Of a DNA stretch of 64,000 nucleotides, positions 11,001-53,172 are shown piece by piece. Every line of letters begins with the position of its first letter. The stretch's first letter is position 1. Position numbers and translations under genes: made by a program. The DNA is from Pristiophorus japonicus (taxonomy: Eukaryota). Below the pieces are notes generated by a model. The model saw only the letters and a list, made by a program, of their open reading frames with translations. It was not told where the DNA came from and searched no databases. The stretch spans positions 134,416,001 to 134,480,000 of the forward strand of contig NC_091989.1 in assembly GCF_044704955.1 (NCBI RefSeq), in the 5' to 3' direction.

Positions 11001-12777
11001 ATAGATTTATTTATATTCTTTGCTTGTGCTCAAATGAGACTCCTAACAAAACCTCTTTATATCTCACTTGGGATTTTGGGCATGAGAAATACTTGATTCT
11101 ATTCTTTGCCTTCAGCGTTGTACCAGGAGGTTTGTTTGGTATAATTTCCTACAGGAAGTGGAAAATGTTGCGACAATCTATCTTTCTAATTCCCCCCTGT
11201 GATTAATTGTATTTAAGCAAACATCAGCCAAATAATGATTTTAAATTTCAGTCTTTTGGTTGGAGCATTCTGAAAATTGGTTTAAAAATAGTTGCTAAAC
11301 ACAAAGCTGACAAAATACAGTAAAATAGCTTCCTCTGGTGTTTAATAAGGATGTGTCTGTTCTGTCTGCTTACAGCTCCCTGATCTGATACAATATTCAG
11401 CCCAATACACTGAAAGTATATCTTGCTCCAGCTCAATGCACAATATGCCTTGCACAACAAGAAACAGCCTGTGATTACAGCCAACACTACTTTGCTTCAC
11501 TGTTATCTCTTTGGCATTGGTAGCATTTAACCCCCTTAAATTTACCATCTCACCATTCTAAATTGGTGTTGTGTACCAGTCTCATTATGCATGCTGGGTT
11601 CCATTGGAGCCTGATTTTATTTATGATGGAGACTCAAATGCTTTTTCCTTTTCCTCACTCACTTAAAAAACTAACTTCCCACCAACAAGTCTCTAATAAG
11701 ATCATTCCCAGTTGATCTGCAACCAGCACCTATCACTTTACTCAGCTCCAAGTTCAGGACACAGCAGATGCAAACCACAAGATGTTAAGTGCAAACATGG
11801 ATGACCACCTCTCCACATTTACTTTGCTGGGCAGTCATAGGCCCACATTTTTATGGATGCTCAATGCCATCAATTTCCTGAACCTCAGGTTGTTTTCACT
11901 AAGGGATGCAAACAATTGAGGGGTCCACACAGTTGCAGTCAACTGCATTGCTCTAGTGTAACAATGGTGCCAAATCTTGCAATGTGCGACATTAGTTAGA
12001 CCTTTTCCTGCAATTGTCTAAATTTTTAAAATCTCTAATAGCAATTTACTACCTATAGGAATGAGGCACCACTGTTTAAATTGTCCCCTTTCTGGGCTGG
12101 AGAAGTTGACTGGCATTGTCGGAATAATCATCCCATTGTTAAAAGGGTACTTACACTGTTAAGTGCAAGTCCTAACTTTCTAGGATGAGTTTAATGTGAA
12201 AATCCAGCATGTTCTTAATAATTGAGGGCAAACTGCTGTTTGTATGAGGCAAATGCCGATGCGGCATCAATCGACCATAGGTTATGATGACTCGCAACAC
12301 ACAGAGGATCCCCTAAACTTGGTAGCTGATTTATCCACATGGCATGAGTCGTGAACTCACTGTTATTTTTCCAGGCAGATTTGGGTCATGTATCCTATAC
12401 CAAGCTTAAATACTAATTAAACAGGAAAGGAGAGTACGGTACAGACTAAATTAAGGGGGGACATTGTAATATAGTTCCACCTAGTAGATCACTGCTCCAC
12501 CAAGTGGACTACTGTGGTAATGCAGCCATTGCTGTTTACAAAGAATACAAAAGGAATGGAGCTATTTTGGAGTCTGTGTGTGTTGTGATGTCATAAAGAA
12601 CATACCACATTGGCGATGAAGGATGGGATAATTGGATTCCCTAGCTGAAATTTTTGTTGGTGGATGATTTCAGCTAGAGAGGTCTAGAGAGGTCTAAAAA
12701 ATCCAAGGTAAATTAGCAGAACGGCTAAAAAATCCAAGGTAAATTACAAGCACACTTCGCTGAACTGAAGAGTCCAG

Positions 12778-15700
12778 ATGGCCGCGCCTATGGGAATAAT
12801 AGGGCACTTGAGTGAGTTTCAACATGACTGAGAGACTTTCAGAGTGTATGTAGAGCAGTTAGAAATGTTTTTCCCTGCAAATTGTATCATTGAAGTCCCC
12901 GATGATGAAAACCGTAACCGGGTAGTGTTAAAAAGAAAACGGGCTATTTTCTTGACTGAAGCAGGCCCAGAGGTGTATGAAACCCTGAAAAATGTCCTTG
13001 TTCCTGTCACGCCAAAGGACTCATCACTTACGGAGATTCTAAACAAGTTAGAACAGCACTACAGTCCTGAGCCCCTGGAAATTGCTGAAAGTTATCGTTT
13101 CGGACTACAAGGTTAGTTAATTGATGAATGTATCAGTGAGTACATTGTAGCATTAAAGAAGCTATCCAATCACTATCACTTCGGAAACTTTCAGGACTGA
13201 GCATTGCATGGCCGCTTTGTTTGTGGAATGAAGAATGAAGCAATAAGAAGAAAGTTGTTGACAAGCCCTAACTTGACTTTTGATTTAGCGTGTCAGACAG
13301 CTATGTCAATGGATATGGCCGACCAATATTCTTGAGAATTTAGAGCCATTTCCAGTCATCAGACAATTGAGATGAATTGCCTGCAGGTTAAAAGTAAAAG
13401 GCAGTGGGGCCCCAAGGTCTCAGCAACTTGCCAAGATAACAGAGCATTGAAGTCGTGCTATCAGTGTCTGGGACAACACATTGCTCAAAGTTGTCCATAT
13501 GTGAAGGCAGAATGTTTCTTCTGTAGGAAAACTGGGCATCTTGCAAAGGCATGCCGACTGAAGAGTAAACCAACTTTCAAGGCTATAAGTAGAAATCCCC
13601 ATAGCATGGAAGAAAAGCAACAGGATGAGGAGGTTTTGGAGATACACATCATCAGAAGCACAAAAGTATCTCACAGCGATTCAAAAAGTAGATTTTGCAG
13701 AAACCAGGATAACCATGGAACTCGACACTGGCGCATCAGTGAGTGTAGTACTGGAATTGCTATACCTCGACAAATTGCGGGATTTCCCATTGGAGAAATC
13801 CAAGGTAGAGCTGCAAGGCTACTCAGGAGAGCAAATTCCTGTGGTAGGTCATATCACCGTACCGGTGAAATACAAGGATCAATTTCAGAGCTTGCATCTC
13901 TTAGTAGTGGCAGGAGACAAGCCTGCCTTACTAGGTAGAAATTGGTTGAGATCACTGAAGCTGGATTGGAATTAGATTTTTCATGTTGAAACGAGATTTG
14001 CATCGAAGGATGATGTCATTAAGAAGTATCCGAAGGTGTTCTGCGAAACAGGCAGTCCGATTCAAGGCTTCAAGGCATGTGTCAGGGTACAGAAGGACAC
14101 TAGACTAGTTTACTGCAAGCCACGTCCTTTACCATACGCACTCAAGGATAGAGTTGAGCAAGAACTCAAAAGACTAGAGAATGAGAACATTATCTCTAAG
14201 ATAGATCTATGTAATTGGGCTACACTCTTGTTGTTATACCTAAATCAGATGGTAAGGTAAGGTTGTGTGGTGATTATAAAGTAATCGTAAGCCAAGTTCT
14301 AGAGGGTAATCTTCCCAATACATTGCCAAATGTAGAAGATTTGTTCACAATGCTGACAGGTGGTCAGATCTTCTCAAAGTTAGATCTCACAAATGCCTAC
14401 TTACAACTTGAACTAGATGAGGACTATAAATATTCATCTAGGCCTATATCAATTTAATAGGCTACCATTTGGAATGTCTTCCGCCCCATCATATTCCAAG
14501 GGATGCTGAACCAGATTATGTAAGGCATTGAAGGAGTAGTATGTTATTTAGATGACATACTCATGTCAGCACCAAACAGGCTAATCCATAATAACTTATT
14601 GAATGAAGTGCTCAAACGGTTAGAGAAGCACAGAGTACAAGTGACTGCTCGCAAGTGTGAGTTATTTCAAAACGCAGTGGAGTACTTAGGGCACAGAGTA
14701 GACAAATATGGTTTACATCCAACCAAGGGAAAGCTGGATGCAATTAGAAATGCACCCACTCCCAAGAATGTCATTAAACTTTGATCAATTTTGGGTCTTT
14801 TGAACTATTATGGGAAGTTCCTACCAAATATGGCTAGAGTGTTACATCAACTGAATGAGCTGTTGAAAAAACAGCTCATTGGAAATTGTCAGAAGAATGC
14901 GACGCAGCATTCAAGGAGTGTAAAAGCCAGTTGGTAGAGAGTACCATGTTAGTTCACCATGACGTATCTAAGGAGATCAAGCTAGCATGTGACGCCTCTC
15001 CGTATGGAGTTGGGGTAATGATCTCTCATGTACTACATAGTGGGGAGGAGAGACCAATTGCTTTCGCTTCACGCATTCTCAGTGCCAGTGAGCGTAATTA
15101 TGTGCAAATCGAAAGGGAAGCTTTGCCATTAATTTTTGGGGTCAAGAAGTTCCACAAATACTTATATGGTCATAAGTTTATCATCGTTATGAACCATAAG
15201 CCCCTGACAGCAATCCTCCATCCAAAGTCCCCAGTTCCAAGATTAGCTGCAGCCCGAATGCAGAGTTAGACTTTGATTTTGTCAGCATATACGTATGACA
15301 TTGAGTGCAGACAATCAGCGGATTACAGGGATGCTGATGCTATGTCCAGGTTGCCTTACCCAATCACAAGTTACACCCGATATGTAAGAGGTGTTCGATT
15401 TTTCATTCATTGATGAACTGCCAGTCACAGCTGAAGAGATTGACAGAGCAACCAAACGTGACCCAGTTATGTCAAAGGTGTATGATTAAATAGCAAATGG
15501 CTGGCCAAACCAGATATCAGAGAAAGAAATTCATCCATACTTAGTTCATAGGAATGAATTGTCCATCAATAAAGATTGTATCATGTGGGGTGCAAGAGTA
15601 GTTAGACCAAATAAATTCCAGTCCAAACTATTAGGAGATCTTCATGACCAGCACCTGGGAATGTGCTTGACCAAGAATTTTCCACGCAGTTACTTATGGT

Positions 15701-16860
15701 GCCCAGGTCTAGATAAAGATATAGAATACATCGCTAGTCAGTGTACAACATGTCAATCAATAAGCAAGAAACCAACACTAGTACCATTACAGCCATGGAA
15801 ATGGCCTCCTAGGGTGTGGCAAAGGTTACATATCAATTTTGCTGAGCTAGAAGAACAACAATTGTTCATTGTGATTGATAGCCATTCGAAATGGGGAGAT
15901 GTTTCTAATGCGGAAAATAACAACAAGTAAAACACTAGACAATTTGTGAAGATTATTTTCTCCATATGGCCTCCCAGAAAAGATTGTGTCTGATAATGGA
16001 CCACAATTGTGTTCAGAAGAATTTGCAGTTCACAAGCAGAAATAATGTGAAACATACCAAGATTCTACCATACCACCCTGCTTCAAATGGTGCAGCAGAG
16101 CGCACAGTACAAATTATAAAACGTGCTCTCATCAAGCAAATGCTTGATCCAAATCCAAGGAAATGGCAGTTGTCATTGGACCACAAATAGGCTAATTTTC
16201 TAATTACTTATAATACTCCTCATTGAACTATTGGTCAAACGACAGCCACAAACCAGGTTCTCGTTGTTAAAGCCAAACTTGGCACTGTCAGTAGAAGAGA
16301 AACAATTAAGACAGAAAGAGAATCATGATAGAGGTAGAGTAAGAGAGAGAAGTATGAAATTAAATCAGAAGGTAAGAGTGAAGAACCATCACCATAAATG
16401 GTTAAAGTGGTTACCAGGAAGAGTAATGAAGATATGTGGTCCTCGCACATATTTGGGCAAGATGTTTGATCATGGAAAGGTTTGGTTTGTTCATATTGAT
16501 CATATTTTACCTACAGATGTGGAAGGAGTTGAAAGTTGGAATGATTCGATTATTTCTGATACATCAGATAGTCTTATTACAAGTACAGTACCAGTAGCAT
16601 ATGCTACATCAGATGTACTAAAAACAAGTCTAAGAGAAAGTCAGAATTTAAGTCTGAGTCCGAGTCAGGCAGACAAACAGTCTGATGTTGTAGAGAGTTC
16701 AAATGTAGATCAAGGACATCCCTTGGTGAAAAACTCTCCTCAGGCTCAGCCTAGAATGAGTCTAAGTTCGACACCATGTTTGAAAAATTCTGTTCAAGAG
16801 CGAAGGTATCTTCTTCGAAACAGAAAACAAGTGTTGAGTTTAATTTGTAAATATGGCAAA
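12778..16860 (+). pseudogene. Disrupted gag-pol of element A
   Basis: Gag start MAAPMGIIG. Zn knuckles CYQCLGQHIAQSC and CFFCRKTGHLAKAC. Protease LDTGASVS. RT (RLCGDYK, FSKLDLTNAYLQ, CYLDD). RNase H (LACDASPYG). Integrase (PYHPASNGAAER). Many stops and frameshifts. Confidence 0.92.
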
Positions 16861-17259
16861 ATAAGTCCATGGGCTAGATTTTGTGCTTATTGCCCAAAAA
16901 AGGGCGTTATTTCCAGCGTGGGAGGTAAAAATGGGTTTTCAGATCGTCGGCTTCTCGGCCATTCTCAAAGTACCTAGTCTCCATTTTTGAAATTGGGCAT
17001 AGCGATATGAAATGGGCGGTAGCGTTAAATCTTGCTGACCTTCTGCCGTAAAGTGTCGCCGTCCTTAGCAACGGCATGGCAACGCTCGATTCCTGTGATT
17101 CAGAAGGTCAAGGGTCATCATGACATGCGCAGAAGAGGAGACAGAGAGAGAGGGAGCTGAGAAGGACTGAAGGCATGTGTGGGTGTGGTGGAGGAAGGAG
17201 GGAGAGTTTAGAGCTTTACAGCAAATAGGGAAACAAAATTTAGCTGTTACCAGCCTATA

Positions 17260-19075
17260 ATGGAGGGAGAGGAGTAGGCATCACAGCACGCTATGGAAAC
17301 TGACACTGGCGAGAGCAGTGAAGTGGGAGAGGAGCACATTGGAGGTTGCAAAAGAGTGAGGAGGTTCTCGGACGAGGCAAATGCCTCCCTCCTGCAGGAG
17401 GTCGAATTACGCTGGGGTGATTTGACACAGAGGGCGTGGAAAGCCCATCCCAAAGGCCTACCAGAAGATATGGACCGAGACAGCAGAGGTGGTCTCGTCG
17501 GCGACCAACGAGGTGCATGGGAGCAACCAATGCCGCAAACGATGGAACGACCTTGTGGGATCCGCAAGAGTAGATATTACATTTATTTACATGTACTTAT
17601 GTATTTATATAATTTGATTTGTAACAGTCACGAGTGACTATCAGCAGATGTGAGGTCTTGCACTTTTACCGGGAATGTTTTACTCAAAGCCTGCGGTCAT
17701 GGTGCACAGCTTTAGGTAAAGAATGATAATTATCATAATAATCATGATTACGTCTGTCGGTTATGTGTTGTATCAATGTCTGTGACAGTACCTAGCAATG
17801 ATATCACGTAATGATTTCATGCCATGTTGTCCTGTCACCTTTTACAGAAGAAGCTATCAATGATGAGGTCTGTGCAGAGGCGAACGGGTGGGGTGCCACC
17901 AGTCCCCAGCGACATCACAGAGATGGAGGAGCATGTGCTCGCACTCGAGGGGAGGCACACCCAGATAGCCACGGAAGCATCTGCAGACCCTGAAGTGATG
18001 CTACATAAGTAAAGTTTACACCATTGCATGATGTAAAGTCAATAGATGCCACACCCACTCATATCCGAACAATCATATATGATAGATGATTTCTAAAATT
18101 GTCATAGAAATAATGATGGCCTATTGGAAATCATTGCAATGCAAATGTGTTGATGGTCATTAAATGTGATGTCTGTGATGGTTTTGATAGTGGTGGTGCT
18201 TTTGTCGTGCATATGCTGTGTGTAGCGCTGGACTCGCCTTGTGACCCTAGCATCTCCTTCTCCTCTAATAACCTCATTTGTGTTTTGCAGCTCATCCAGC
18301 AGCGCCCCAGGCAAGACCACAGAGGCCAGAAGGTGGGGGTGTGGGGCCCGACTCTCCAGTCGATCCTACATCTGGTGCTGAGGAGCTCAGATTCTCGCCC
18401 GTCAATCCGCTGAGTCTGTTCTCTATGGATAAGAGCGCAGACTTCGAGGAACCTGCATCGCCACGCTCCAGAAGCCAAGGTCATCCAGTGGTCCTCCAGT
18501 CATTCCCACCTCCACTCTGGAGGTACCGGTCCCAAGCACCTCACCACAGAGCACCTCATTTGTCTCCAGGATGGCGCCAACCCTGCGGAGGCCTCGTGGA
18601 CGCGGCAGGTCTGGTCCACAAGCGCCACATGAAAGCGGAGAGATGGTATAGTTGTCCAGGAGGACTATAGACATTGGTGACCAGCTCATCGAAGCACTGG
18701 GGGGCATATCTTGACAGCTGGCCACCATGACTGAGAACATTCCTTGGTTGGCAGAGGCCCTGGATGCGATAGCCAGGAACACTGCTGGCAGAGGCCTCCC
18801 AGTGGTCCCAGAGCGCGGCACTCCACCCCTAGGTTCTGCACCACCACTGTGAACGACAGATGCCAGCAAGGACCAAGATCCTGCTTCTGCATCAGAGAAT
18901 GTGGCCCCCTCGGCACCCCCCCCCCCCACCGCTCCCGTACCCATGCAACCACCACCTCTGCCTTCATCCCCCCCCAATGAGGCACCGCCTGAGGAGCTCC
19001 TCAGCCAAGTGCCATGGAACGAGGAGGGGAAGGGGTAGAGGTGGGGAGAAGAAGGGGAGGGGGGAAGGAAAGTGA
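17260..19075 (+). pseudogene. Harbinger Myb/SANT-like (NAIF1/MSANTD-type) partner gene, 3 exons (~17260-17569, 17848-~18008, 18291-19075)
   Basis: Exon 1 reads KRVRRFSDEANASLLQEVELRWG...(frameshift)...KIWTETAEVVS...QCRKRWNDLVGSAR. Acceptors 'ttttacag' and 'ttttgcag'. Exon 2 reads KKLSMMRSVQRRTGGVP. Confidence 0.82.
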
Positions 19076-19509
19076 GGTGCATGTCTGCAGGTGATGGCTG
19101 TGTTATATCTCCATCTGGGTGTATGCAATTTGTTGTAATGTATGGGGGAGGGGACCACCCTCCTGCTTTGCATTTGTATTCTGTGTTGCTGGACATGTTG
19201 AACACTTGATTGATGTCAATGGTGGAAAAAGTGGGGTGTGGGCAGGGGTTGGGTGTTTTTGTCTGTGATACTTATGATTTCAGACCAATGTTGGTATGAA
19301 AATGTTTTTATTGAACATAACCTTGTTGCACATTGTCTCAGATAGCTGCACCGTTACACACTGAACATGAAAGGATTAAATAAAACTTAACTTCAATCAA
19401 TGTAAACTTTAGCTGGCACCAAGGTGATGGGCATCATTGATGTCTGAGCTGCACACACACGGCAGTGTGTCAGCGTTGTCACTCACAGCAACGTTCTTTC
19501 AGGCAAATC

Positions 19510-20692
19510 ATTCAGATATCAGCTCCTCACGTAAGAATCTTGCAGCTATTTAGCCACCACGGGCCCTTTCCTGCGGTCTGGAGGGAGTCGTGGGCATAGC
19601 CAGCCTGATTGTCTGGCCCTAGGTCAGCGTCCAGCCCCTTGTCATCTTCTTCCTCTCTCTCCTGAGGTGGAGCATCAGTCCCTTCTGGGCAATTCTTGGC
19701 CCCTCCTGATAGCCAGGTTGTGCAACATGGAGCACACGACCACGAATATACCTACTTGCTCAGGGTTGTATTGTAGCACCCCTCCTGAATGGTTCAGACA
19801 TCTGAAGCACTGCTTAAGCACAGTTATTCTTTTGTGGACCACATTGCGTGTGTCTCTGTGGCTACGGTTGTATCGCTTTTCGGCCTTGGTGTGGGTGTCT
19901 AGCAGGGGGGTCATCAGCCAGGTGGCTAGGCCATATCAGTTATCACCAAGCATCCAGCATTGTCCTTGTGGCTGACTCTTAAACATGTCAGAGACAACGC
20001 TCTTACGCAGGATGTGAGCCTCATCGAAGGTGCCTGAACATTTGGCATTCACTGCCATGATAATCTGGTTGTGGTCGACAACTAGTTGGACCTTCAGGGA
20101 GTGAAATCCTTTTCTGTTATGAAAACGCTACGGGTCCTGAGAAGGTGGCGTTGCATGGCGATGTGAGTGCACTGTATAGCTACCTGCACCCTGGGGAACT
20201 TAGCAATGCGGTAGAATGCTCTAGCCCTGTCAGTCTGAGCCTCCGTTGTCATGGGGAAGCTGACATGATAAGGTTCATCCTTCTCACGTACAGGGTCTCC
20301 ATGACCTGTCTAATGCAGCGATGGGTTGCATAGTGAGACAGAGGGAAAATCGCGCCCGCGGAGGCCCGAAAGGAACCTGACGTGGAGAAAGACAGTGCCG
20401 CGGTGACCTTGACCTCGACCGACACTGATGTCCTGATGACAGGCTGCATATGTGGCATGATGAGCTCACATATTTCATTGATCACCACCTTGTGGCAGCG
20501 CAGTCTCCGAAGGCAGATGTGGTCGGACACGTCGAGATAGGACTTCTTTCCCCTGTACGTGCGGGGTGTGTATGGTCTGGCCCTCCTCATTCTTAAATTG
20601 GACACATAATGATGTGCATCACACATTGAGCCATCTGCACTCTGCAACATCTGTGTATTAATCGATGCAGGCTGAGAAATGGCTGGCCCCAT
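19510..20692 (-). pseudogene. HARBI1-like DDE transposase, frameshifted
   Basis: MGPAISQP...CLRRLR...SVEVKVTAALSFSTSGSFRASAG, then MTPLL...VLKQCFRCLNHSGG...VVVCSMLHNLAI. Confidence 0.9.
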
Positions 20693-21639
20693 TGCAATGA
20701 AAGCATAATAGCGATTGATCAGAGCAATAATTTCCTCACTAAAATACACCTAGAGTAAACCCCCAATAGTCCAGAGTCTGAAAATATGTCTGTTGAGATA
20801 GTCACTTCACTTGAGGAAAACTCCAGAGTTAATGCAAACTCCCCTGAAGTTGAAGCAGCCTTTTGAATGAAGCAAACTGCAATTTTAAAAATGGCAGCCA
20901 TACCACTGGCTTTAGTTCAGAACGGTTCCAGTTTTTCTGGTCGATTTTTTGGGCGAGCGATATTGTGGCCGATATGTGTGCGAGGTGGTGAAAGTGATGA
21001 TGGGTGATCTCCTGGGCATTAGTTTCGCCAAATGTGCTCTTTTTGACAAAAACAAATTGGCGGGTGGTATTATTAAATCTTGGCGTTAATTCCATGCAGA
21101 AAGTAATGCTGGGCAATATTATGGGTATTGATTTCACCCATTCTGATGATTCCACCCAAAAAAAGTGGGCGGGCGGTATTATTTTTTCCCAACGTTACGC
21201 ACACAGGGAAAGTAACGCTCGCCAATAAGTTTCCGAAAAATGTCCATCAGTTTCCATTTTGTGGCTAAATGAGCGATATATGGGCGTTATATGTAATTTC
21301 AGCAGTAAAATAGATGTTAAGTGGGCATTAAGCTTGCAAAAAACGAAGAAACGCTGGCTCCATATCTTTTGTTATGTATAAACATGCAAGTTATGTATGC
21401 TGATTATGCTGTTATAGTTACTTCTTCATTAAGGAGAGAGAACTGTAATATAGTTCCACCTAGTGGACTACTGCTCCACCTAGTGGACTACTGTGCTAAT
21501 GCAGCATTGCTGTTTACAAAGAATAAAAAAGGAATGGAGCCATCTTGGAGTCTGTGTGTGTTGTGATGTCGTAAAGAATATACCACAGACATAAATGGAC
21601 AGGGAATAAATAGAGTCATAGAACAGGAGTGTAAAACTA

Positions 21640-27000: not shown

Positions 27001-28614
27001 TCACTGCCCGGCAGATCAAAACCTGGATAAGCCAGGACCCCTTATTATCTCTAGTCAAAAGCTGTGTGCTTCACGGGAGCTGGTCCAGTGTCCCAGTGGA
27101 AATGCAGGAAGAGATAAAGCTGTTCCAGCGGCGCAAAGGTGAAATGTCTATACAGGCAGACTGCCTTCTGTGGGGCAATCGAGTAGTGGTCCCCAAGAAG
27201 GGCAGAGAAACCTTCTTCAATGACCTCCACAATACCCACCCAGGCATCGTAATGATAAAAGCGATAGCCAGATCCCACGTGTGGTGGCCCGGTATCGATG
27301 CGGACTTAGAGTCCTGCGTTCACAGATGTAATACATGCTCGCAGTTAAGCAATGCACCCAGGGAGGCGTCACTAAGTTTATGGTCTTGGCCCTCCAAATC
27401 GTGGTCTAGGGTACACGTCGACTATGCAGGCCCATTCTTGGGTAAAATGTTCCTTGTGATTGTAGACGCGTACTCCAAGTGGATTGAATGTGAGATAATG
27501 TCGGCTAGCACGTCCACTGCCATTACTGAAAGCCTGCGGGCCATGTTTCTCACACACAGCCTACCCGATGACCTGGTGAGTGAAAACGGGCCATGTTTTA
27601 CCAGTGCTGAGTTCAAAGAATTCATAACCCATAATAGGATCAAACATGTCACATCTGCCCCGTTTAAACCAGCGTCCAATGGTCAGGCAGAGAGAGCAGT
27701 GCAAACCATCAAGCAAGGCTTGAAGAGGGTAACTGAAGGCTCACTGCAGACTCGCCTATCCCGATTCCTGCTTAGCTACCGCACGAGACTCCACTCACTC
27801 ACTGGGATCCCACCTGCTGAACTGCTCATGAAAAGAGCACTTAAGACAAGGTTCTCGTTAGTTCACCCAGATCTACATGAACAGATAGAGAGCAGGCGGC
27901 TTCAACAAAGTGCATACCATGATAGCGCAAATGTGTCACGCGAGATTGAAATCAATGATCCTGTATTTGTATTAAATTATGGACAAGGTCCCAAGTGGCT
28001 TCCCGGCACTGTCATGGCCAAAGAGGGGAACAGGGTGTTTCAGGTCAAACTTTCAAATGGACTCATTCACAGGAAATACTTGGACCAAATCAAACTCAGA
28101 TTTACAGACTATCCTGAACAACCCACCTTGGACCCCAACTTTTTTGATCCTCCAACATACACACCAGTGGCAACCGGCACCACGGTTGACCACGAAGCAG
28201 AACCCATTATCCACAGCAGCCCTGCAGGGCCTAACACACCAGGCAGCTCAGCAAGGCCAGCTGCACAACAGCCCAGCGAGGGCCCAACAAATGATTCAAC
28301 AACATCAGCTTTCACACCGAGACGATCAACCAGTGCAAGAATGGCCCCAGATTGACTCACATTGTAAATAGTTACACTTGTGACTTTGCGGGGGGGAAGT
28401 GTTGTTATATATGTGGACTTGTATTTACTCTGTACAGCCACCAGAGGGCTCATCCCCTGGAGTCCCAAGGGATCCCATAATCCCTTGGGAGCACAGGTAT
28501 TTAAGGAGGCTTCACAGGTTGGAGAGGCACTCTGGAGACCTGCAATAAAAGACTACGGTCACACTTTATTTTGAGCTCACAGTGTTCAGTCTTACTCTTT
28601 CTCCATACACTACA
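24061..28614 (+). mobile_element. Ty3/Gypsy (Mag-like) LTR retrotransposon E, full-length
   Basis: 212-bp LTRs 24061-24272 and 28403-28614 (6 differences counted). TSD CTCCT at 24056-24060 and 28615-28619. PBS 'tggcgacgag' at 24275. G-rich PPT before 28403. Confidence 0.97.
24291..28355 (+). pseudogene. Disrupted gag-pol of element E
   Basis: Gag (GILEKFSEGDDWETFVE, MARYRF). Protease ELDMGASQS. RT VVFQDD. RNase H LACDASSYG. Integrase with HHCC, VHVDYAGP and PASNGQAER (open 26898-28355). Confidence 0.93.
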
Positions 28615-28620
28615 CTCCTT

Positions 28621-36120: not shown

Positions 36121-36422
36121 AGGCTCAGCGGCAACTATTCCACATGAACCATGTTTGCTGTTTAGACCTGTTCCGTAATGTGTTGTGTTAATGGAACAAA
36201 TGATGAAAATTATTCTTGTTTACTTCAAAAGTTGTGTTAATAATCGAACAAATGATGGAAATGATTCTTCTTGAGTTCCAAAAGTTGTGTTAATAATGAA
36301 ACAAATATTGTAAATTATTCAGTTTTAATGTAAAATATATTTTATTGAAAAGTTTAACAAACAGTTCTTTGTACTTAACTTTAATAAAATTATTCTTGTA
36401 TCAATCTTTAAAGTTTTCAGTT

Positions 36423-36500
36423 ACAATCACTTACAAACTTTAAGATCACTTACAAACTCTAAGATCACTTAAAAACTTTAAGATCACTTACTAACTTTTA
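36423..36500. repeat. 19-bp tandem repeat x4 between the convergent Harbinger genes
   Basis: Unit 'atcacttacaaactttaag'. Confidence 0.85.
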
Positions 36501-36626
36501 AACTTGTAAATTTACATAAATTACAAAAATCTTTTAATTTGAGAACAACAGTTACAACAGTGACAATAATAACAACAACAGTAGCAGCAGCAAAGAAAGG
36601 CTGCATCCATCTCTCCTCAACCTTAT

Positions 36627-41510: not shown

Positions 41511-41705
41511 GATATGTTTTGGGACCCTGATGACTGTTACCCCAAAAGCTTGACACTGTACAAGAGTGCTTAAATTCAATTCAAACATTGTAAAACTTAT
41601 AACTATTACTTTGAAAAACTGTAACAACTTTAACAACTTTAACAACTTAATATAAACTTTTAAAAATCAAACGTCAACTATTTTAAATTAACAATGAACA
41701 ATTGA

Positions 41706-43326
41706 CTACAACAAAGCATCCTTTACTGTCCTCGACCTCGACCTCGACCATGTGCTACACCACCCTTCGGACTCACTCCCGCCCTTCCCTTTCCCACTGC
41801 CCCTGAGCCCGGACCTCCCCGTGCTGGTACCAAGCCGGCATGCAGCAGTGCACCCTGAGTGCTGTTGCTGTCGTTGGGGGTCAGACTTTGCAGACGCAAT
41901 AAATGAGGCCTCAGGAGAAGCTCGTGATCCAGAAGGTACGGTTTCAGGGCTGGAAGCTGTTGGCAGCTCCCCACCCTCAGGTGCTGTCGACCCAACTACT
42001 ATGGCGTGCAGGTATTGCGCGCCATATCCCAATCCTGTCGATTGCCGCACAGCATCGACGGAGTCGATGGTTCGCTCTATCGCAGTGATCAGACGCGACA
42101 TATCCTCCGACTGTCATTCTGATAGTGCCGCGATGTTTCCAGCTATTGTAGTATGGCCTTGAGCAGCTCTCAACCTATGTCGACGCTGGCCTGTGACAGC
42201 TGCATCATGTCCTGGTACACGCCTATCTGTCTTGCAGCAATGGACCTTTTCTGCACCAACCTCCGTCGCTGTGGCAAAGGCGCCGCAACACTTGGGGGGT
42301 GGGGGGGCTGCACACCACTTGGTCCCGTAGAATCAGAGGAGGCATGGGGGAATCCCCTGAATATAGACTCGGTGGTGGAGGATGTTCCAGCTGGCCCAGA
42401 TGGAACTGTTACCTCCTCCTCTGTCTCCACCCCCACCTCCACTGGCTCCAGGATGAGCTGCTCTTCCTCTTCCTCTTCCTCATCTCTGGCAGGGGAGAAA
42501 TCGGGAGAGGGCTGGGTGACGCCAGAGGTGGAGGCAGTGGGTCTGTCATCGGGTCTCTCTGCGGAGGTCTAGTCTGAATCCTCCGAGTCTAGAAGTACAA
42601 AACAACATTTAAAAGTGCTTGGCACGGGGAGGGGTCAGGGGTACATGAGTACACCACAGTGACTTAAATGTCCACCACTGCTGCATTACTACATTACATA
42701 TTGCAGACAGACAATACATATATACATATACATATGCATTGTGTTACATGCCCCCACCATTGTAGTACATCATATGAGCCCAACATTACAGTGCAACAAA
42801 CTTACATAACATTACATGAAGCCAACATTACAGTTACAGTTACATTACATGACATTCCATGACATTACGCAACCGCAACACAGACCGGGGATTGTATTGA
42901 ACTGACCATCCTGTGTGAGTGGGTCAGCTCCAACGGCGGTGGTGGCATGGTTGCTATTCCGACCAGCGACAGGGCACGGATCTCAATCTTCATCAAGAGT
43001 TCTTGCGTTGGGGGTCCTCCTCCTTGTGCTGCTGATCCGCTGCTATTGCAGATGTCTTCTTCTGCAGAAAGTAAAGTAAATGAAAGCAAAAATCTCAAAT
43101 CAATTTAACATCGCAAACACACAAGTTCACACACACACACACACATACATCAAAACACTGCGTTGATCCTCTTGTCATTGCCTGAAAGCACAAATACATC
43201 ACCGTAACCTTAGGATAAATAACATCATCCATTTGACACAAAACCTACATTTACATGGTACATGTCACATGGCGGGTGCATAAATAAAATCATTACTTAT
43301 TCTTGCTGCCCTCCCCAGGTCGTTCC
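41706..43326 (-). pseudogene. Harbinger Myb/SANT-like partner gene (end of exon 1, exon 2 ~43062-42866, exon 3 ~42589-41706)
   Basis: Acceptors 'ttctgcag' and 'cttctag'. Acidic low-complexity region, then MMQLSQASVDIG, resembling the other partner genes. RG-rich end. Confidence 0.7.
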
Positions 43327-43470
43327 TGTCATGTATCCAAAAATGTTTACTGCTTGTACTATTACATATGATGTGCCACCAGAGGGCACTACTATGGGAA
43401 ACTTGTACACCAGCTGTATGGTCACTAAGGTGTGCCACCAGAGGGCACTGCAGTGGAGACTTGTAGGAGC
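43327..43470 (+). mobile_element. 5' fragment of an LTR from a fourth family
   Basis: Starts 'tgtcatgtat' like the LTRs at 48163 and 52118. Contains 'tgtgccaccagagggcact' twice. Begins exactly where the Harbinger is cut. Confidence 0.55.
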
Positions 43471-45193
43471 ATTTTGGTGAAGATCAGTGACACACTGCAA
43501 GGCCAAGTCTAAGGTATCTGTCATCCTATTTAAGGCGCCAGACATGTTGGCATTCAGAATGTGCATGGCCATGTCAAGGTGTGCATGGATCTATTTGATT
43601 GCTGCAATTGGTGTTCCAAAGAGTTGACCACTCTATCCATCCAAGAAGACATCATTGCGATGCCCTACGATATCAACCCACTCATGCTTGAGCTGGACTC
43701 CTCCATTCTCTCTGGAATCATGGTCAGTGTGCTTGGAAGGCCTATCTGTACATCACAAATTTTCTGGTGCTCCTCAATGATTCTTCTTTTTATCGATGGC
43801 CCCTGGGGGTACAGCATCTGTTCCAGCTGAGCAGAGCTTGGAGAGGGTTATGCCCTCCGACATGGACTCTCCACTGCTGACCCTGCCGCCACTGTCTGCT
43901 CTTGCTCACTTGTGAAGTGCAAGTCACCAGGTGAAATCCCAACTATCTGTGTGACTGAAGTGTGAGTATCTAAGTTGGTGCATGGTAAACATAAGCCCTG
44001 TGATGGTGTATCCTCAGAAGGAATCAGCTCCTCTGAGGACTTGTAATCCACAAGACTCTTGCTGCATTTGTGAGGGTCCTGTCAGAGAAGAAATATGAAT
44101 TAGTACTGGCAAGATAAGAATATTGCAACATCATTAGGAAGATGATCATATTACTCGTTGCTGAAATCAAATCAAACGACTCACTGATATGCGGCAAACT
44201 ACCCTCCAGAAGAGTGGTAGCAGTGAAATGCAGCTAGCCCATGAGAGGGATGATGGCGAAAGGGGATATAGATGTGGGCATTCCACTCAAAGCGCTTCCA
44301 CTTTTCACGGTGACCCCCTCCTCTGCAATTGTCAGTTGTGAGATCTGTGGAGACCCACCTTCGGTTCTCTCCCTCTCCCTTGTGTTTTGCGCTCCTTTCT
44401 CCTGCAACGGGCGAAAGAGCAGACCTATGAGTGACTGTAATGGCATGTGTTCACCCAATGGATGGCGTGCATTTGGTGAGAATGACTATCAGGGAGAGGC
44501 TTCAAATTGCATGAGAATGAGGGCGAGTGTCAGTGGTGGATGGATAGATGGGGATGTGAGGAAGTGCATAGAAAGAGAACGATGGGTGCGCTTGCGAGGT
44601 TAAGTAGGTGTGAGGAGTGATGTGATGGAGTAGCCTTGAGAAGGAAGAGTGAGGGGGTGGGGGGTGATGCGCACAGTGGGATGTAGATGATTATGCAACT
44701 GTACTCACCTTTCCTGACCTGGTTAAGTCATTAAAGCACTTTCTGCACTGAATCCAGGAGCAAGGCACAATGCTCCTGTTGCTGACCTCCTGGGCCACCA
44801 CCCTCTTTGTGGCAGCAGCAGGTTTTTTCCTCCCGTTGCTGAGGAAGAGACTCTCTCTGCGGCTCCTCATCGTCCCCGCAGTATATCAAGGGAAGCGTTA
44901 TTGAAGCGGGGGTGCAGCCTTTGAGCATCTTGAATCCATTGTCACACATGTCTTCTCTTGCTTCCAATTCCCAACTCCTCTAAATTCCATCTTTGGATTG
45001 GCCCTTTAAATGTGGGTCATTATCACGCCGGCTGCCGCGCAATCAATGCCAAACCCGGAAGCAAAATTATACTGAGGTGCCTGCATTAAAATGCCACAGA
45101 CAGACATGCTGAACTTACTTTTGGATTTTCCACACAATATCGGATCCCTCCCATTCCCTGCTCCCAATGCACCGCGGAGTTAATATCAAGGCC
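43470..45193 (-). mobile_element. Right part of an older Harbinger carrying a Myb/SANT-like gene remnant
   Basis: Minus strand reads SWIQCRKCFNDLTRSGK with a gtgagt donor at 44708. Exon 2 reads EKGAQNTRERERTEGG after 'ttgcag'. Terminus-like 'gttaatatcaaggcc' ends at 45193. Confidence 0.7.
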
Positions 45194-45862
45194 AATCTAT
45201 CTTCTCATGTATTCAACCAGCAATGTAACCCATGTATAATCTGACCTAAGTTGTACATTGTGAGAACAATGACCACTAGGTGGTGAACTTGTGGGAGACA
45301 CTCCTAACCTGGACCTTCAGATATAAAAGGGGAAGCTCCACCCACTTCCTGCACTTGAGTGCTTAGGAATAAAGAACAGGTCACTGACTGACCTTCTCTC
45401 AAGCATGGGCTTCGTAGTAAGGACGTATCAATGGCGACAAGAAACTGGGATTTAAACCACGCGAGCGTGGCCACTAGCAGAACAGTCGAGAGGTACTATG
45501 TTTAGGAATGGTTGGGACAGAGATTCAACATTGTTAAAGCAGCACACAGTTCTCCAGGCAGACAAGGGCAATCGGGCATACCCCAACATGTAGTCGAACC
45601 CAGAGGGTTCACGCCATTGCAAGAGACAATGCGGCCAGTAATGGGGCCATCAACACCTGTTAATGGCGCACTCAAGGACAATAACAGGTGCAGTCAGGAA
45701 CGATCGACTGGCAAGAGACCTTTTGTTTCCAACAGCAGCTCATGTTGGAGGCGTTGAGGCACACACTCAGCCGGAGTTTGCAGAGATGAGCAAAATACCT
45801 GCAGAAATTGCAGAAATGAACGCTAGAGGAAATGGCTGGAAGCTGAAGTTCAGCGAGTTCAT

Positions 45863-48162
45863 GTGGAGCACGTATACAGTTCATACACCAGGACGCCACC
45901 GATAATGATGAAAGTGCTCGTCAATGGCATCCCAGTATCAATGGAGCTAGACACGGGGGCCAGCCAGTCCCTGATGGGTATCAAACAGTTCGAAAAGTTG
46001 TGGGCGTCCAAGGCCAGGAGGCCAAAATTATCACCAATTGACGCACAGCTACGGACATACACAAAGGAGATCATTCCGGTGCTAGGCAGCGCCACGGTAG
46101 TCATGACCCACAAAGATTCGGAGAGCAGGTTGCCACTCTGGGTTGTCCCGGGGGATGGTCCCGCACTACTGTGGAGGAGTTGGCTTGCTGTCATGAACTG
46201 GAAATGGGGCGATGTCAATGCAATTTCCTCTGTGGAGCGAGTATCATGCTCACAGATCCTGGACAAATTTGACTCATTATTTCAACCCGGCATTGGCACT
46301 TTCATGGGAGCCAAGGTAGTGATTCACATAAACCCAGACGCCAGGCCAGTACACCACAAGGCCAGAGCGGTGCCGTACATGATGCGGGAAAAGATAGAAG
46401 GCGAATTGGACCGCCTGCTGAGGGAAGGCATCATCTCGCCAGTCGAATTCAGTGACTGGGCGAGCCTGATTGTGCCGGTGCTCAAGGCGGATGGGTCGGT
46501 CAGGATATGTGGTGATTACAAGGCCACCATCAATCAGGTGTCACTCCAAGACCAGTACCCGCTACCGGGAGCGGAGGACCTCTTTGCGACGCTATCCGGT
46601 AGCAAACCTTTTTCAAAATTGGACCTGACCTCAGCTTACATGACCCAGGAGCTGGCGAGTGAGTCGAAGAAGCTGACCACCATCATCACACACAAGGGGT
46701 TGTTTGAGTACAACAGATGTCCGTTCGGGATTCGCTCGGCCGCCGCGATCTTCCAACGAAATATGGAAAGCCTCCTCGAGTCGATTCCAGGGACGGTGGT
46801 TTTTCAGGACGACATCCTCATAGCGGGTTACGATACTGAAGAACACCTCCACAACCTGGAGGAGGTGCCAAGCAGACTGGACCGGGTAGGACTGCGCCTG
46901 AAAAAGGCGAAGTGCGTCTTCCTAGCTCCAGAGGTAGAATTCCTGGGGATGAGGGTAGCAGCAGACGGAATCAGCCCTACTGCGTCCAAGATGGAAGCGA
47001 TCCAGAGAGCACCCAGACCCCGTAACACGACGGAGCTGGGTTCGTTCCTGGGGCTCCTGAACTATTTTGGTAACTTTCTTCCCAAATTGAGTACGCTGCT
47101 AGAGCCGCTACACGTGCTCCTATGCAAAGGTCGCGAATGGGTCTGGGGGGACAGCCAGGAAAGGGCTTTTAATAGAGCACGCAATTTGTTATCTTCCAAC
47201 AATCTGTTAACGCTATATGACCCATGTAAGAAACTTGTGTTAACGTGCGATGCGTCGTCCTATGGTGTCGGGTGTGTGTTGCAGCATGTCAATGCCAAGG
47301 GTCAGTTACAGCTGGTAGCTTATGCCTCCAGAAGTCTGTCCCAGGCAGAAAGGAGCTACAGGATGGTAGAAAAGGAGGCGCTCGTATGTGTTTATGCGGT
47401 AAAGAAAATGCACCAGTACCTGTTTGGCAGGAAATTTGAGCTGGAGACAGATCACAAATCCCTAACGTCCCTTTTGGCCGACAACAAGGCCATAAATGCA
47501 AACGCATCGGCCTGCATACAGAGGTGGGCACTCACGTTAGCCGCCTATGACTACACAATTTGGCACAGACCGGGCACCGAAAACTGCGCCGATGCACTCA
47601 GCAGGCTCCCACTAGCCACCACTGAGGGGGCTACTGAGCATGCTGCTGAGATGGTCATGGCTGTTGAAGCTTTCGGAAGCGAAGGCTCACCCGTGACAGC
47701 CCGTCAGATTAAAGTCTAGACAAATAGAGACTCGCTATTGTCTCTAGTCAAGAAATGTGTCCTGAATGGGGACTGGGCAGTCATGTACAGGGCATGCCCT
47801 GAGGAATTTAAACCATTTCACAGGCGCAGGGATGAACTCTCGATTCAGGCCAATTGCCTACTGTGGGGAAACCGCGTAGTCATGCCCCAGATGGGCAGAG
47901 AGGTGTTCATCAGAGAACTCCACACTGAGCACCTGGGCATTGTCATAATGAAGGCAATTGCCAGGTCACACGTTTGGTGGCCAGGGATAGACGCAGATCT
48001 GGAATTTTGTGTTCACAGGTGCCCAGCGTGTGCCCAGCTGGGCAATGCGCCCAGGGAAGCCCCCCTTAGCCCCTGGCCATGGCCCGCCAAGCCTTGGTCA
48101 CGCATCCATGTGGACTATGCAGGTCCTTTCATGGGAAAAATGTTTTTGGTTGTAGTAGACGC
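45863..48162 (+). pseudogene. pol of element F (protease-RT-RNase H open for 618 aa, then stop; integrase resumes at ~51233-52070 after the nested copy)
   Basis: LDTGASQS, RICGDYK, VVFQDD, LTCDASSYG, and IHVDYAGP...FLVVVDA, interrupted just before YSKW. Confidence 0.93.
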
Positions 48163-51100
48163 TGTCATGTATTCAACCAGCAATGTAACCCATGTATAAT
48201 CTGACCTAAGTTGTACACTGTGAGAACAATGACCACTAGTTGGGAGACACTCATAACCTGGGCCTTCAGGTACAAAAGGGGAAGCTCCACCCACCTTCAT
48301 CACTTGGAGTGCTAAGAGATAAAGGACAGGTCACAGACTGACCTTCTCTCAAGCATGGGCCTCGTGTGTATTTATACTGTATAGTAAGAACCTATCAATG
48401 GTGACGAGGATGGGATTTAAACCACGCGAGCATGGCCATTAGCAGATCAGACGAGAGGTACTGTGTTAAGGAATGGTTGGGACAGAGATTCAACATTGTT
48501 AAAGCAGCACACAGTTCTCCAGGCAAACAGGGGCAATCGGGCATGCCCCAACATGTAGTCGAACCCAGAGGGGGAGTTCGACAGAGACAATGGCAAGCTG
48601 AACAGCGATTCACACCATTGCAAGGGACAATGCGGCCAGTAATGGGGCCATCAACACCTGGTAATGGCGCACTCAAGGATCTTCCAACGAAATATGGAAA
48701 GCCTCCTCAAGTCGATTCTAGGGACGGTGGTTTTTCAGGACGAAATCCTCATCACGGGTTACAATACTGAAGAACACCGCCACAACCTGGAGGAGATGCT
48801 ACGCAGACTGGACCGGGTAGGGCTGCGCCTGAAAAAGGCGAAGTGCATCTTCCTAGCTCCAGAGGTAGAATTCCTGGGGATGAGGGTAGCAGCAGACGGG
48901 ATCAGCCCTACTGCGTCCAAGACGGAAGCGGTCCAGAGAGCACCCAGACTCCGTAACACGACGGAGCTGCATTCGTTCCTGGGGCTCCTGAACTATTTTG
49001 GTAACTTTCTTCCCAAATTGAGCATGCTGCTAGAGCAGCTACATGTGCTCCTACGCAAAGGTCGCGAATGGGTCTTAGGGGACAGCCAGGAAAGGGCTTT
49101 TAATAAAGCACGCAATTTGTTATGTTCCACCACTCTGTTAACACTATACGACCCATGTAAGAAACTTGTGTTAACGTGCGATGCGTCATCCAATGGTGTC
49201 AGGTGTTTGTTGCAGCATGTCAATGTCAAGGGTCAGTTACAGCTGGTAGCTTATGCCTCCAGGAGTCTGTCCCAGGCAGAAAGGGGCTACGGGATGGTAG
49301 AAGAAGAGGCGCTCGCATGTGCATATGCTGTAAAGAAAATGCGCCAGTACCTGTTTGGCAGGAAATTTGAGCTGGAGACAGATCACAAACCCCTAACGCC
49401 CCTTTTGGCCGACAACAAGGCCATAAATGCAAACGCATCGGCCCGCAAACACAGGTGGGCACTCACGTTAGCCACCTATGACTATACAATTTGGCACAGA
49501 CCGGGCACCGAAAACTGCGCCGATGCACTCAGCAGGCTCCCACTAGCCACCACTGAAGGGGCTACCGAGCATGCTGCTGAGAAGGTCATGGCTGTTGAAG
49601 CTTTCGGAAGTGAAGGCTCACCCGTGACAGCCCGTCAGATTAAAGTCTGGACAAATAGAGACCTGCTATTGTCTCTCGTCAAGAAATGTGTCCTGAATGG
49701 GGACTGGGCAGCCACGTACAGGGCATGCCCTGAGGAATTTAAACCATTTCACAGGCGCAGGGATGAACTCTCGATTCAGGCCAATTGCCTACTGTGGGGT
49801 AACCGCGTAGTCATGCCCCAGATGGGCAGAGAGGTGTTCATCAGAGAACTCCACAATGAGCACCCGGACATTGTCATGATGAAGGCAATTGCCAGGTCAC
49901 ACGTTTGGTGGCCAGGGATAGACGCAGATCTGGAACTTTCTGTTCGCAGGTGCAACACGTGTGCCCAGCTGGGCAATGCGCCCAGGGAAGCCCTCCTTAG
50001 CCCCAGGCCATGGCCCACCAAGCCTTGGTCACGCATCCATGTGGACTACGCAGGTCCTTTCATGGGAAAAATGTTTTTGGTTGTAGCAGACGCCTACTCC
50101 AAATGGATCGAGTGTGACATTTTAAATTCAAGCACATCCTCTGCCACGGTTGAAAGTCTACGGGCAATGTTCGCCGCCCACGGCCTACCGGACGTCTTGG
50201 TCAGCGACAATGACCCGTGCTTCACAAGCACTGAATTCCAGGACTTCATGGAAGGCAATGGATTTAACCATGTCAGAACGGCACCGTTCTAGCCGGTCTC
50301 AAACGGCCAGGCAGAACGAGCAGTGCAGATAATCAAACAGGGGATGCTCAGCATCCAAAGGGGTTCCCTACAAAGTCGCTTATCACGCCTCCTTTTGGCC
50401 TATGGATCCCGACCACATTCGCTCACAGGGGTTCCACCCGCAGAGCTGCTAATGAAAAGGATGCTCAAAACCCGGTTATTCCTTATACACCCCACCATGA
50501 AAGAAATTGTCGAGAGCAGGCGCCAGCCACAATATGACTACCATGACAGGAATGCGAGGGTGCGATGTATTGATGTAAATAATCCTGTTTTTGTCCTCAA
50601 CTATGCTGCTGGGCCCAAATGGCTCGCAGGCACTGTGATTGCCAAAGAGGGAAATAGGATTCTGGTAGTTAAACTTACCAATGGACAAATCTACCGCAAA
50701 CACGTGGATCAAACAAAAAGGAGGTTCAGCAACCCCATAGCAACCCCATAGAAGAAGCAGAGGAAGAACACGATGTAGAGTTCATTCCACCACAGGTGAC
50801 CGAACACCGGAACCGTGTGGAGGAGAGCCCAGTCACTGTGGGCAGTCCGGACAGGCCTGAGGCACCGCAAACAGCAGACACTCAGGCCAGCGCCCAACAA
50901 CCAGAGCCCCAACTCAGGCGCTCTACAAGGGAGCGTAAACCACCAGAGAGACTCAACCTGTGATCACAATAAGACTTTGGGGGGGGAGGTGATGTCATGT
51001 ATTCAACCAGCAATGTAACCCATGTATAATCTGACCTAAGTTGTACACTGTGAGAACAATGACCACTAGGTGGGAGACACTCCTCACCTGGGCCTTTAGG

Positions 51101-51227
51101 TACAAAAGGAGAAGCTCCACCCACCTTCATCACTTGGAGTGCTAAGAAATAAAGGACAGGTCACAGACTGACCTTCTCTCAAGCATGGGCCTCGTGTGCA
51201 TTTATACTGTATAGTAAGGACCTATCA
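48163..51227 (+). mobile_element. LTR retrotransposon G, same family as F, internally deleted, nested in the integrase of F
   Basis: 235-bp LTRs 48163-48397 and 50993-51227 (8 differences counted). Degenerate TSD GACGC/GGCGT. PBS 'tggtgacgaggatgggatt'. ORF 48664-50292 covers RT C-half, RNase H and integrase. Confidence 0.95.
48399..48416 (+). other. Primer binding site complementary to the tRNA-Ser(GCU) 3' end
   Basis: TGGtGACGAGGATGGGAT differs at one base from TGGCGACGAGGATGGGAT, the reverse complement of vertebrate tRNA-Ser(GCU) ...ATCCCATCCTCGTCG-CCA as I recall it. Related PBSs at 12611, 24275 and 45432. Confidence 0.75.
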
Positions 51228-53172
51228 GGCGTCTACTCCAAATGGATCGAGTGTGACATTTTAAATTCAAGCACATCCTCTGTCACGGTAGAAAGTCTAC
51301 GGGCAATGTTCGCCACCCATGGTCTACCGGGCATCTTGGTCAGCGAGCACTGAATTCCAGGACTTCATGGCAGGCAATGGAATTAACCATGTTAGAATGG
51401 CACCATTCAAGCCGGCCTCAAACGGCCAGGCAGAACGAGCAGTGCAGATAATCAAACATGGGATGCTCAGAATCCAAGGGGGTTCCCTACAAAGCCGCTT
51501 ATCACGCTTCCTGTTGGCCTACAGATCCCGACTACACTCGCTCACAGGGGTTCCACCCGCAGAGCTGCTAATGAAAAGGACGCTCAAAACCCGGTTATCC
51601 CTTATACACCCCACCATGAAAGAAATTGTCGAGAGCAGGCGCCAGTCACAAAATGACTACAATGACAGGAATGCGAGGGCGCGATGTATTTATGTCAATG
51701 ACCCTGTTTTTGTCCTCAACTACGCTGCAGGGCCCAAATGGCTCACAAGCACTGTGATTGCCAAAGAGGGAAATAGGATTCTGGTAGTTAAACTTACCAA
51801 TGGACAAATCTGCTGCAAACATTGGGTCAAACAAAAAGGAGGTTCAGCAACCCCATAGAAGAAGCAGAGGAAGAACACAATGTAGAGTTCACTCCTCCAT
51901 AGGTGACCGAACACAGGGACCAAAGGGAAGAGAGCCCAGTCACTGTGGGCAATCCGGATAGGCCTGAGGCACTGCAAACAGCAGACACTCAGGCCAACGC
52001 CCAACAACCGGAGCCCCAACTCAGGCGCTCTACAAGAGAGCGTAAACCACCAGAGAGACTCAACCTGTGATCTCAATAAGACTTTGGGGGGGGGGGGGGG
52101 GGGGGCGGGGGGAGTGATGTCATGTATTCAACCAGCAATGTAACCCATGTATAATCTGACTCATGTTGTACACTGTGAGAACAATGACCACTAGGTGGTG
52201 AACTTGTGGGAGACACTCCTAACCTGGACCTTCAGATATAAAAGAGGAAGCTCCACCCACTTCCTGCACTTGAGTGCTAAGGAATAAAGGACAGGTCACA
52301 GACTGACCTTCTCTCAAGCATGGGCCTCGTGTACAATAATACTATATAGTAAGGACGTATCATATCTGACTGCTGAGTCATTAAGGGAAATGGAAAGACG
52401 AAGGAGTGGGCATCCTTACCTCACAAGATATGAACTCTTAATCTTTTATTTCAAGGAAATGGTTGTAACATGAAAGACATCCGATGGTATAAAGCACAAC
52501 TCTGATTGCGCAGTTTTGTTTTATAAGGAGACCCAAACGTCATGGATGAACTGAGATTTGCATCATCCAAGTACATCACTGCATCTGGAAGGTCTACGGA
52601 CAGACAAACCTGCTTCATCCAGAAGCCCCTTTGCTTATCAGTATCTAAAGAGGGCATATTAACACCTGGAAAAATGATGCTAATGTTATTATTTTTAAAT
52701 ATTGTGCTGATTCAGTATCTTACTTAACATTTAACTTGTAAATAAATCAGACCGATACACATCAATCTGTTGGTTTGGTATTTTACTCTTTTCAGAAGAG
52801 ATGGGAGAATATGTTAGGTATTCCATGTGATCTCTGCTAAACAATATTCTGCAACTTGGGTGTTAAACCTAGGTGCACTAACCAATACGCAGCATGTATA
52901 AAGATGTGGGTTTTAGTTCAAAGGAAATTCAGTCTACTTATAGAAATCACCTTTTTGTTGTGAACACAAGACAAAAGTGTTGTAAATAAAAAGGGCCAAA
53001 GTATAAGACCCGCCCTAGCCTGGTGATACTGAGGCAAATTGTCCATCTTCACTGCCAGCCTTGGTATTGGGTATGTACAATAATAGCATGCACCTTTAAA
53101 ATACATGATACATTAGAGCAGAGGTTTTACATAGAGATGAAATTACTGTTTTATAAAGTATTAATTAATTAA

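Follow-up and report, generated by a model that had tools for sequence, protein, structure and literature searches.

The window analysed here, i.e. the whole 64,000-nucleotide stretch of DNA, holds long terminal repeats (LTRs) of several retrotransposon families as well as the start of a BRD7-like gene, whose first coding exon begins at 61339. The LTRs and their CTCF-type motifs are listed below. Scores, here and throughout, are bits of a CTCF matrix that approximates JASPAR MA0139.1, and motif positions are the starts of 19-mers.

12465..12607, plus strand: family A 5' LTR, with TG..CA ends, target-site duplication (TSD) GACAT and then the primer site
12492, minus strand: motif of the family A 5' LTR, decayed, at best 11.0 bits, within two tandem 20-bp units
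21444..21587, plus strand: family A 3' LTR, with 132 identities, 10 mismatches and 3 gaps against the 5' LTR
21451 and 21471, minus strand: motifs of the family A 3' LTR, 17.7 and 16.5 bits
24061..24272, plus strand: family E 5' LTR, with TATA-like box, AATAAA and primer site; TSD CTCCT
24093, plus strand: motif of the family E 5' LTR, 11.3 bits
24273..28402, plus strand: family E internal region, in RT-RNase H-integrase order (Ty3/gypsy), its frame broken by stops and frameshifts
28403..28614, plus strand: family E 3' LTR, the same as the 5' LTR at 206 of 212 positions
28435, plus strand: motif of the family E 3' LTR, 15.1 bits
43327..43467, plus strand: family H LTR piece, the 5' 141 bp (U3) of a copy without TATA and the remaining LTR
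43373 and 43432, plus strand: pair of exact cores of family H, 59 bp apart, 22.2 and 21.9 bits
45203..45430, plus strand: family F 5' LTR, motif at 45270 (plus strand), 15.9 bits
48163..48397, plus strand: family G 5' LTR, nested in the F element, decayed motif of 8.0 bits that the earlier note did not list
50993..51227, plus strand: family G 3' LTR, motif at 51060 (plus strand), 14.2 bits
52118..52362, plus strand: family F 3' LTR, motif at 52185 (plus strand), 15.9 bits
61223..61241, minus strand: CTCF-like match outside the LTRs, 15.1 bits, in the CpG-rich promoter region of the BRD7-like gene

The earlier note on this stretch had listed CTCF-like motifs in the LTRs of four families, and every sequence that it named was present where it had been reported. 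An IUPAC core with up to two mismatches was matched 25 times in the window, compared with 12.6 +/- 3.9 times in 100 shuffles, none of which reached 25.

Element A (12465-21587) and element E (24061-28614) are each flanked by a 5-bp TSD, as are most of the paired elements fetched from elsewhere. Within the pol region of F (45203-52362) sits G (48163-51227), a relative that has undergone internal deletion. This nesting, together with the reading of the fragment at 43327, corrects the earlier annotation; other copies of that fragment have an LTR of about 300 bp with a TATA box and a primer site. The Pfam domains RVT_1, RT_RNaseH, Integrase_H2C2 and rve were found in that order, the one of Ty3/gypsy, in E, F and G. 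The LTR pair with TG..CA ends, primer site, purine tract and TSD that mark this superfamily were observed as well. Elements of the family H type (L219, L200 and L231-L260) are about 3.1-3.5 kb long; no reverse transcriptase (RT) match was found in them, and they are likely to be non-autonomous. Harbinger-type pieces (DDE_Tnp_4, Myb/SANT) were seen at 35210-41107 and at about 19650-20520 of the window, one of them inside element A.

For a wider survey, 80 LTRs were taken by their primer site, blind to the motif, and clustered with one copy of family H into 27 groups. One primer-site pattern alone has 30,943 matches in the genome, compared with 240 for the reversed control. The primer site and the roughly 40 bases behind it (48399-48450 in the window; also L051-L080) resemble what we take to be the reverse complement of the 3' half of a serine tRNA; an Rfam search at the primer site gave no tRNA match. 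The LTR ends follow the Mag C pattern, with 17 of the 27 representatives beginning with TGTNATRT and most finishing in a close variant of AYANAACA, and the named relatives of the RT are K02A2.6-like proteins of oyster, sea urchin and bony fish (53-54%). Both observations fit the Mag-like identity that had been proposed for these elements, and families E, F/G and H are likely members of a Mag C-like clade of Ty3/gypsy, the RT tree of 21 rows being one from which elements short of RT were left out and which has no named Mag or SURL reference among its rows. The three families have one LTR layout in common, namely motif, GGAG block, TATA and AATAAA, and are therefore not independent of each other. 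Consequently, the presence of motifs in four families stands while their independence does not: the window holds two lineages, and four independent origins of the motif are ruled out, three of the families being one clade.

Motif scores exceeded those of shuffled LTRs, as the earlier note had expected, with 17 of the 27 representatives at 12-23.6 bits (shuffle p<=0.02), which rules out a chance origin of the motif. The family E representative is a mutated copy (10.8 bits), and three of the seven members of this family reach 15.1 bits. The representatives are 51% identical to each other, compared with 47% for shuffles, so that the idea of a motif kept in otherwise dissimilar LTRs was borne out. 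Leaving aside three A-type rows and two that are not clean LTRs (clusters L057 and L198), the main-clade set comprised 22 representatives. The motif is in register in 16 of these, and the other six deviate by loss of a single base or by an altered G run. Choosing the register by best score is mildly circular, yet GGAG stands at the same offset in most rows. Conservation per position tracks the information content of the CTCF matrix (rho 0.80, with five low-information edge positions included), whereas homozygosity in the upstream flank is about 0.3; the upstream 15 bp, where a motif for zinc fingers 9-11 would lie, are not conserved between families.

Departures from the consensus are mostly to bases that CTCF tolerates, i.e. 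A/G in 10:6 families at position 11, G/T in 11:5 at position 12, A/G in 6:8 at position 16 and C/T in 14:2 at position 8. The mean cost of all 36 departures is -2.21 bits against a null of -4.42 (0 of 20,000 draws), and that of the 16 distinct departures -3.58 against -4.50 bits (p=0.023); the latter test is the fairer one, since changes shared by related families inflate the former. Position 15 holds T in four of the 16 families and A in every family A unit, both of which are disfavoured by CTCF. The motif mostly lies 50-60 bp upstream of the TATA box, with a motif-to-TATA distance of 58-63 bp in 11 of the 16 in-register families, and doublets 58-60 bp apart occur in family H and in the L111 family. 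Located 8 bp beyond the core, a GGAG block shows the same degree of conservation as the core itself, which the core matrix does not account for. Apart from the motif, a word C/CT AAGGTCA, which we take to be of the NR5A-type consensus, directly follows AATAAA in eight of the 27 representatives (L113, L182, L184, L074, L133, L138, L187 and L219); it is possibly a site for a gonadal factor or a poly(A) downstream element.

Families that have lost the register are not rare. Out-of-register types make up about 30 of 81 sampled copies and mostly score below 7 bits, and they are abundant and young, with LTR pairs 91-99% identical. The motif is for this reason dispensable for spread. The F, J and L129 types form one weakly supported group in the RT tree (88/71), and the register was lost in the J and L129 types through different deletions. 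At least three lineages (L129, L195, L191, L074 and L060) have lost one base at an identical position of the motif, and within the main clade this loss results in a clean hairpin.

To follow the motif after insertion, copies were chosen by a 3' anchor away from it and rare non-CpG differences were counted. In H-like copies, 9 of 294 motif cells differed, compared with 113 of 2921 flank cells (21 of 30 copies aligned), and in E copies 15 of 420, compared with 112 of 4767 (30 of 30 aligned, some of them in segmental duplicates). Pooled, this amounts to 24/714 (3.4%) in the motif and 225/7688 (2.9%) in the flanks (p=0.49), a test with power enough for a rough halving only and one that a small exapted minority would escape. 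Better preservation of the motif than of its flanks in inserted copies, which the earlier note had proposed to check, was thus not found, and for such copies the outcome is the one that the note itself had named as refuting its reading. In the typical inserted copy the motif evolves neutrally, and since it decays like its flanks no selection at the level of the host is seen.

The second lineage is more distant. The RT of element A is 37-39% identical to that of F and forms a long outgroup row in the tree. Family A LTRs open with one to three tandem 20-bp units, in which the CTCF-type motif is on the minus strand, i.e. opposite to that of the main clade. At least 12 bits were reached by 25 of 28 family A copies, in a sample from which two of 30 loci had been removed as not A-type and which was drawn with a pattern that prescribed four bases in the first unit. 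Here too, variation falls at positions where CTCF tolerates it (A/G 12:15 at position 11; C/T 4:12 at position 8 of the second unit). Two further words were observed in these LTRs: GCCATCTT, presumably of YY1 type, recurs in the 3' half of most of them (L291-L320; 21541-21549 in the window), and TGTGGTAA, presumably of core-enhancer type, comes after the tandem units.

The abundance of the motif was estimated for the genome as a whole, which measures 5.9 Gb. In a random sample of 50 10-kb tiles, 18 LTR pieces made up 0.8% of the sequence, with one entry of the LTR library derived from a tile and 10 further C2 tiles dropped as satellite. These pieces accounted for 10 of the 49 motif matches in the tiles at 12 bits, 6 of 15 at 15 bits and 2 of 3 at 20 bits, and 10 of the 18 had a motif of at least 13 bits. 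Extrapolated to the genome, ten good LTR sites in 500 kb would amount to about 100,000. The exact CCAC-type core occurs 36,377 times, compared with 73 for its reversed control, and the exact CCAG-type core 3,266 times, compared with 158; the CCAC:CCAG ratio is thus 11, whereas the matrix used here predicts about 1.6. Fifty CCAC-type matches, all from the first 15 Mb of C1, were inspected, of which 38 fit the LTR library and another seven had the same layout, giving 45 of 50 in LTRs, or 34 of 39 with segmental duplicates collapsed; because this pattern was designed around the motif of the LTRs, the share holds for that word and not for all CTCF sites. Out of 30 CCAG-type matches, four were in LTRs of this clade. 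We estimate that about 30,000 exact cores derive from the Mag C-like clade.

Other repeats were met along the way. An unclassified family with an exact CCAG-type core took up seven of the 30 sampled matches (L380, L385, L387, L388, L391, L393 and L397), two more small repeat families also have such a core, and a long AT-rich satellite array was seen in L041-L050 (G000:C2:200.0-200.1 Mb). A search for BEL/Pao, used as control superfamily, gave 22 matches, old and broken, and one for the chromovirus-type Gag family gave no match. The single case of another RT lineage (tile L161) has a 198-bp repeat pair without a motif of at least 11 bits.

Taken together, the reading that we favour, with moderate confidence and on the grounds of sequence comparison, is that the U3 of the Mag C-like clade holds a conserved motif of CTCF type, a likely target of CTCF or of its paralog CTCFL, which probably helps to keep the LTR promoter open and transcribed, with selection acting on the source elements. 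A promoter role is suggested by the constant position ahead of the TATA box, and conservation between families combined with neutrality within copies points to selection on source elements. CTCF, or the testis paralog CTCFL, would bind the U3 motif, and bound CTCF would likely hold the LTR promoter accessible and transcribed; via CTCFL, clustered CTCF-type sites might be used as start sites, with a role in the germline. In the catshark, CTCFL is testis-biased (PMC7471279), and in mammals BORIS turns clustered CTCF sites into start sites, dormant transposons included (PMC10832218). The doublets in family H, L111 and family A fit such an activation of clustered sites by CTCFL. A search for ChIP runs that contain 43250-45700 of the window listed none, which speaks neither for nor against binding. 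Active source elements that keep the site would be read and spread, while in inserted copies the site would decay neutrally, free of selection. As a by-product, most exact CCAC-type cores in the genome would stem from these LTRs, of which, by analogy with mouse IAP LTRs, a minority only is predicted to be occupied.

Among the alternatives, the one that survives best, although we regard it as unlikely, is that a longer block made up of the core and GGAG is read by another factor, or folds into an imperfect hairpin in genomic RNA or DNA, with the match to CTCF being incidental. The fixed offset of GGAG in most families speaks for a longer block, and the deletion types expose a word, ACCACA, that we take to be RUNX-like and count in favour of another factor; family A, however, has its motif on the other strand and without a downstream GGAG block. 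As to folding, one register forms Watson-Crick pairs in 62% of cells across the 16 in-register families, compared with 13-48% for other registers, and clean hairpins (z -2.6 to -4.3) occur in four of the six out-of-register families. Yet none of the seven pairs shows a compensatory change, 15 of 16 families have a mismatch at the middle pair, z<=-2 is reached in only two of the 16 in-register families, and positions 11-17, which would form the loop part, are conserved in the CTCF pattern. With no covariation, a conserved hairpin as the only explanation is ruled out.

We give little probability to the motif being a functionless relic of one ancestral LTR that resembled a CTCF site by chance. 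Descent of E, F/G and H from one clade, repeated loss of the motif at no visible cost and neutral decay in copies would all be expected of a relic. Against this, the core was kept while divergence of the flanks came close to that of shuffles, changes are biased to bases that CTCF tolerates, and the same motif recurs in a distant lineage, where it is inverted and amplified in tandem.

Equally improbable, in our judgement, is that the sites are retained by the host to anchor loops or to insulate, also around BRD7, and that the elements loop or insulate themselves. TAD borders in skate follow a convergent CTCF code (PMC10115646) and anchors derived from transposable elements are common in mammals (PMC7786948). 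In the window, the seven plus-strand LTR matches (11.3-22.2 bits) face the minus-strand match at 61223. Against retention by the host stands the fact that the motif is no better kept than its flanks after insertion, and several copies in the window are already decayed (8.0-11.3 bits). The local density reflects one nested F/G pair plus three insertions, and the neighbouring 180 kb are ordinary, with two LTR matches of at least 15 bits. Nothing links the sites to a role at BRD7, contrary to what the earlier note had considered. Self-looping, likewise raised there, is unlikely, since the two LTR sites of an element lie 3-9 kb apart in the same orientation and can form no convergent loop. The first two coding exons of the gene itself (61339-61387 in the window; L323:7476) presumably resemble BRD7, and a search for DUF3512 gave matches on C5 and C1 only and none on the contig of the window; the gene at 61339 may be BRD7 or a further paralog.

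A more far-reaching version of the favoured reading, based on the same sequence data, is put forward tentatively and may well be wrong. Two distant Ty3/gypsy lineages would each have made a CTCF/CTCFL site a core part of the LTR promoter, with testis CTCFL giving transcription in the germline and CTCF protection in the soma. They would thereby supply most strong CTCF motifs of the giant shark genome (about 30,000 exact cores and on the order of 100,000 good matches), and the host would need to mask or absorb these motifs for its loop-extrusion domains to persist.

Transposons may profit themselves from the CTCF sites that they carry, or the host may merely co-opt sites that arose by chance; this clade separates the two, with conservation between families and neutrality in inserted copies. 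Sister families with and without an in-register site are natural controls. The clade could also be used to learn how a genome of 5.9 Gb copes with tens of thousands of additional candidate anchors, and to find out which sites are bound by shark CTCFL. Motif scans are predicted to overcall CTCF sites in this genome; shark CTCF ChIP-seq was reportedly part of a 2018 shark-genome study.

Insulator-protein sites in an LTR retrotransposon are known from Drosophila gypsy, an errantivirus with twelve Su(Hw) sites in its 5' UTR. The elements described here are similar in carrying sites for such a protein, of CTCF type and as candidates, and differ in that one to three sites lie in U3, are copied into both LTRs and are left in solo LTRs. 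In mammals, waves of retrotransposons have reportedly spread CTCF sites (Schmidt 2012). B2 SINEs, HERV LTRs and MER20 are examples of such waves (PMC7786948), and here too a repeat supplies a large share of the CTCF motifs of the genome. In that account single families carry the site, whereas here it is retained at a constant place in the promoter by many families whose LTRs are saturated, and this points to selection on the element. About 10% of mouse IAP LTRs carry a CTCF motif, and binding has been measured, with most copies unbound (PMC7898769). That motif likewise lies near the 5' end of U3 in many copies; the present one is a clade-wide trait of Ty3/gypsy families, known from sequence. 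In lamprey, LTR/Gypsy repeats 743 and 697 are enriched under CTCF ChIP peaks (PMC5504073, Table 3), a further case in which Gypsy-type repeats of a vertebrate outside the mammals are linked to CTCF; Table 3 and the passages that go with it give no LTR position, clade or conservation across families. LTRs of the Mag C clade have been described as short, with ends TGTNATRT..AYANAACA and AATAAA (PMC3601003), which matches the LTRs found here, while in the main text of that paper conserved motifs in U3 are few and CTCF does not come up. A literature search, supplements aside, gave no report of Mag or shark LTRs in which a CTCF motif is conserved clade-wide. With CTCF in the U3 of IAP and on lamprey Gypsy repeats already known, what appears to be new is a CTCF-type motif conserved in U3 throughout a clade of Mag-like LTRs.
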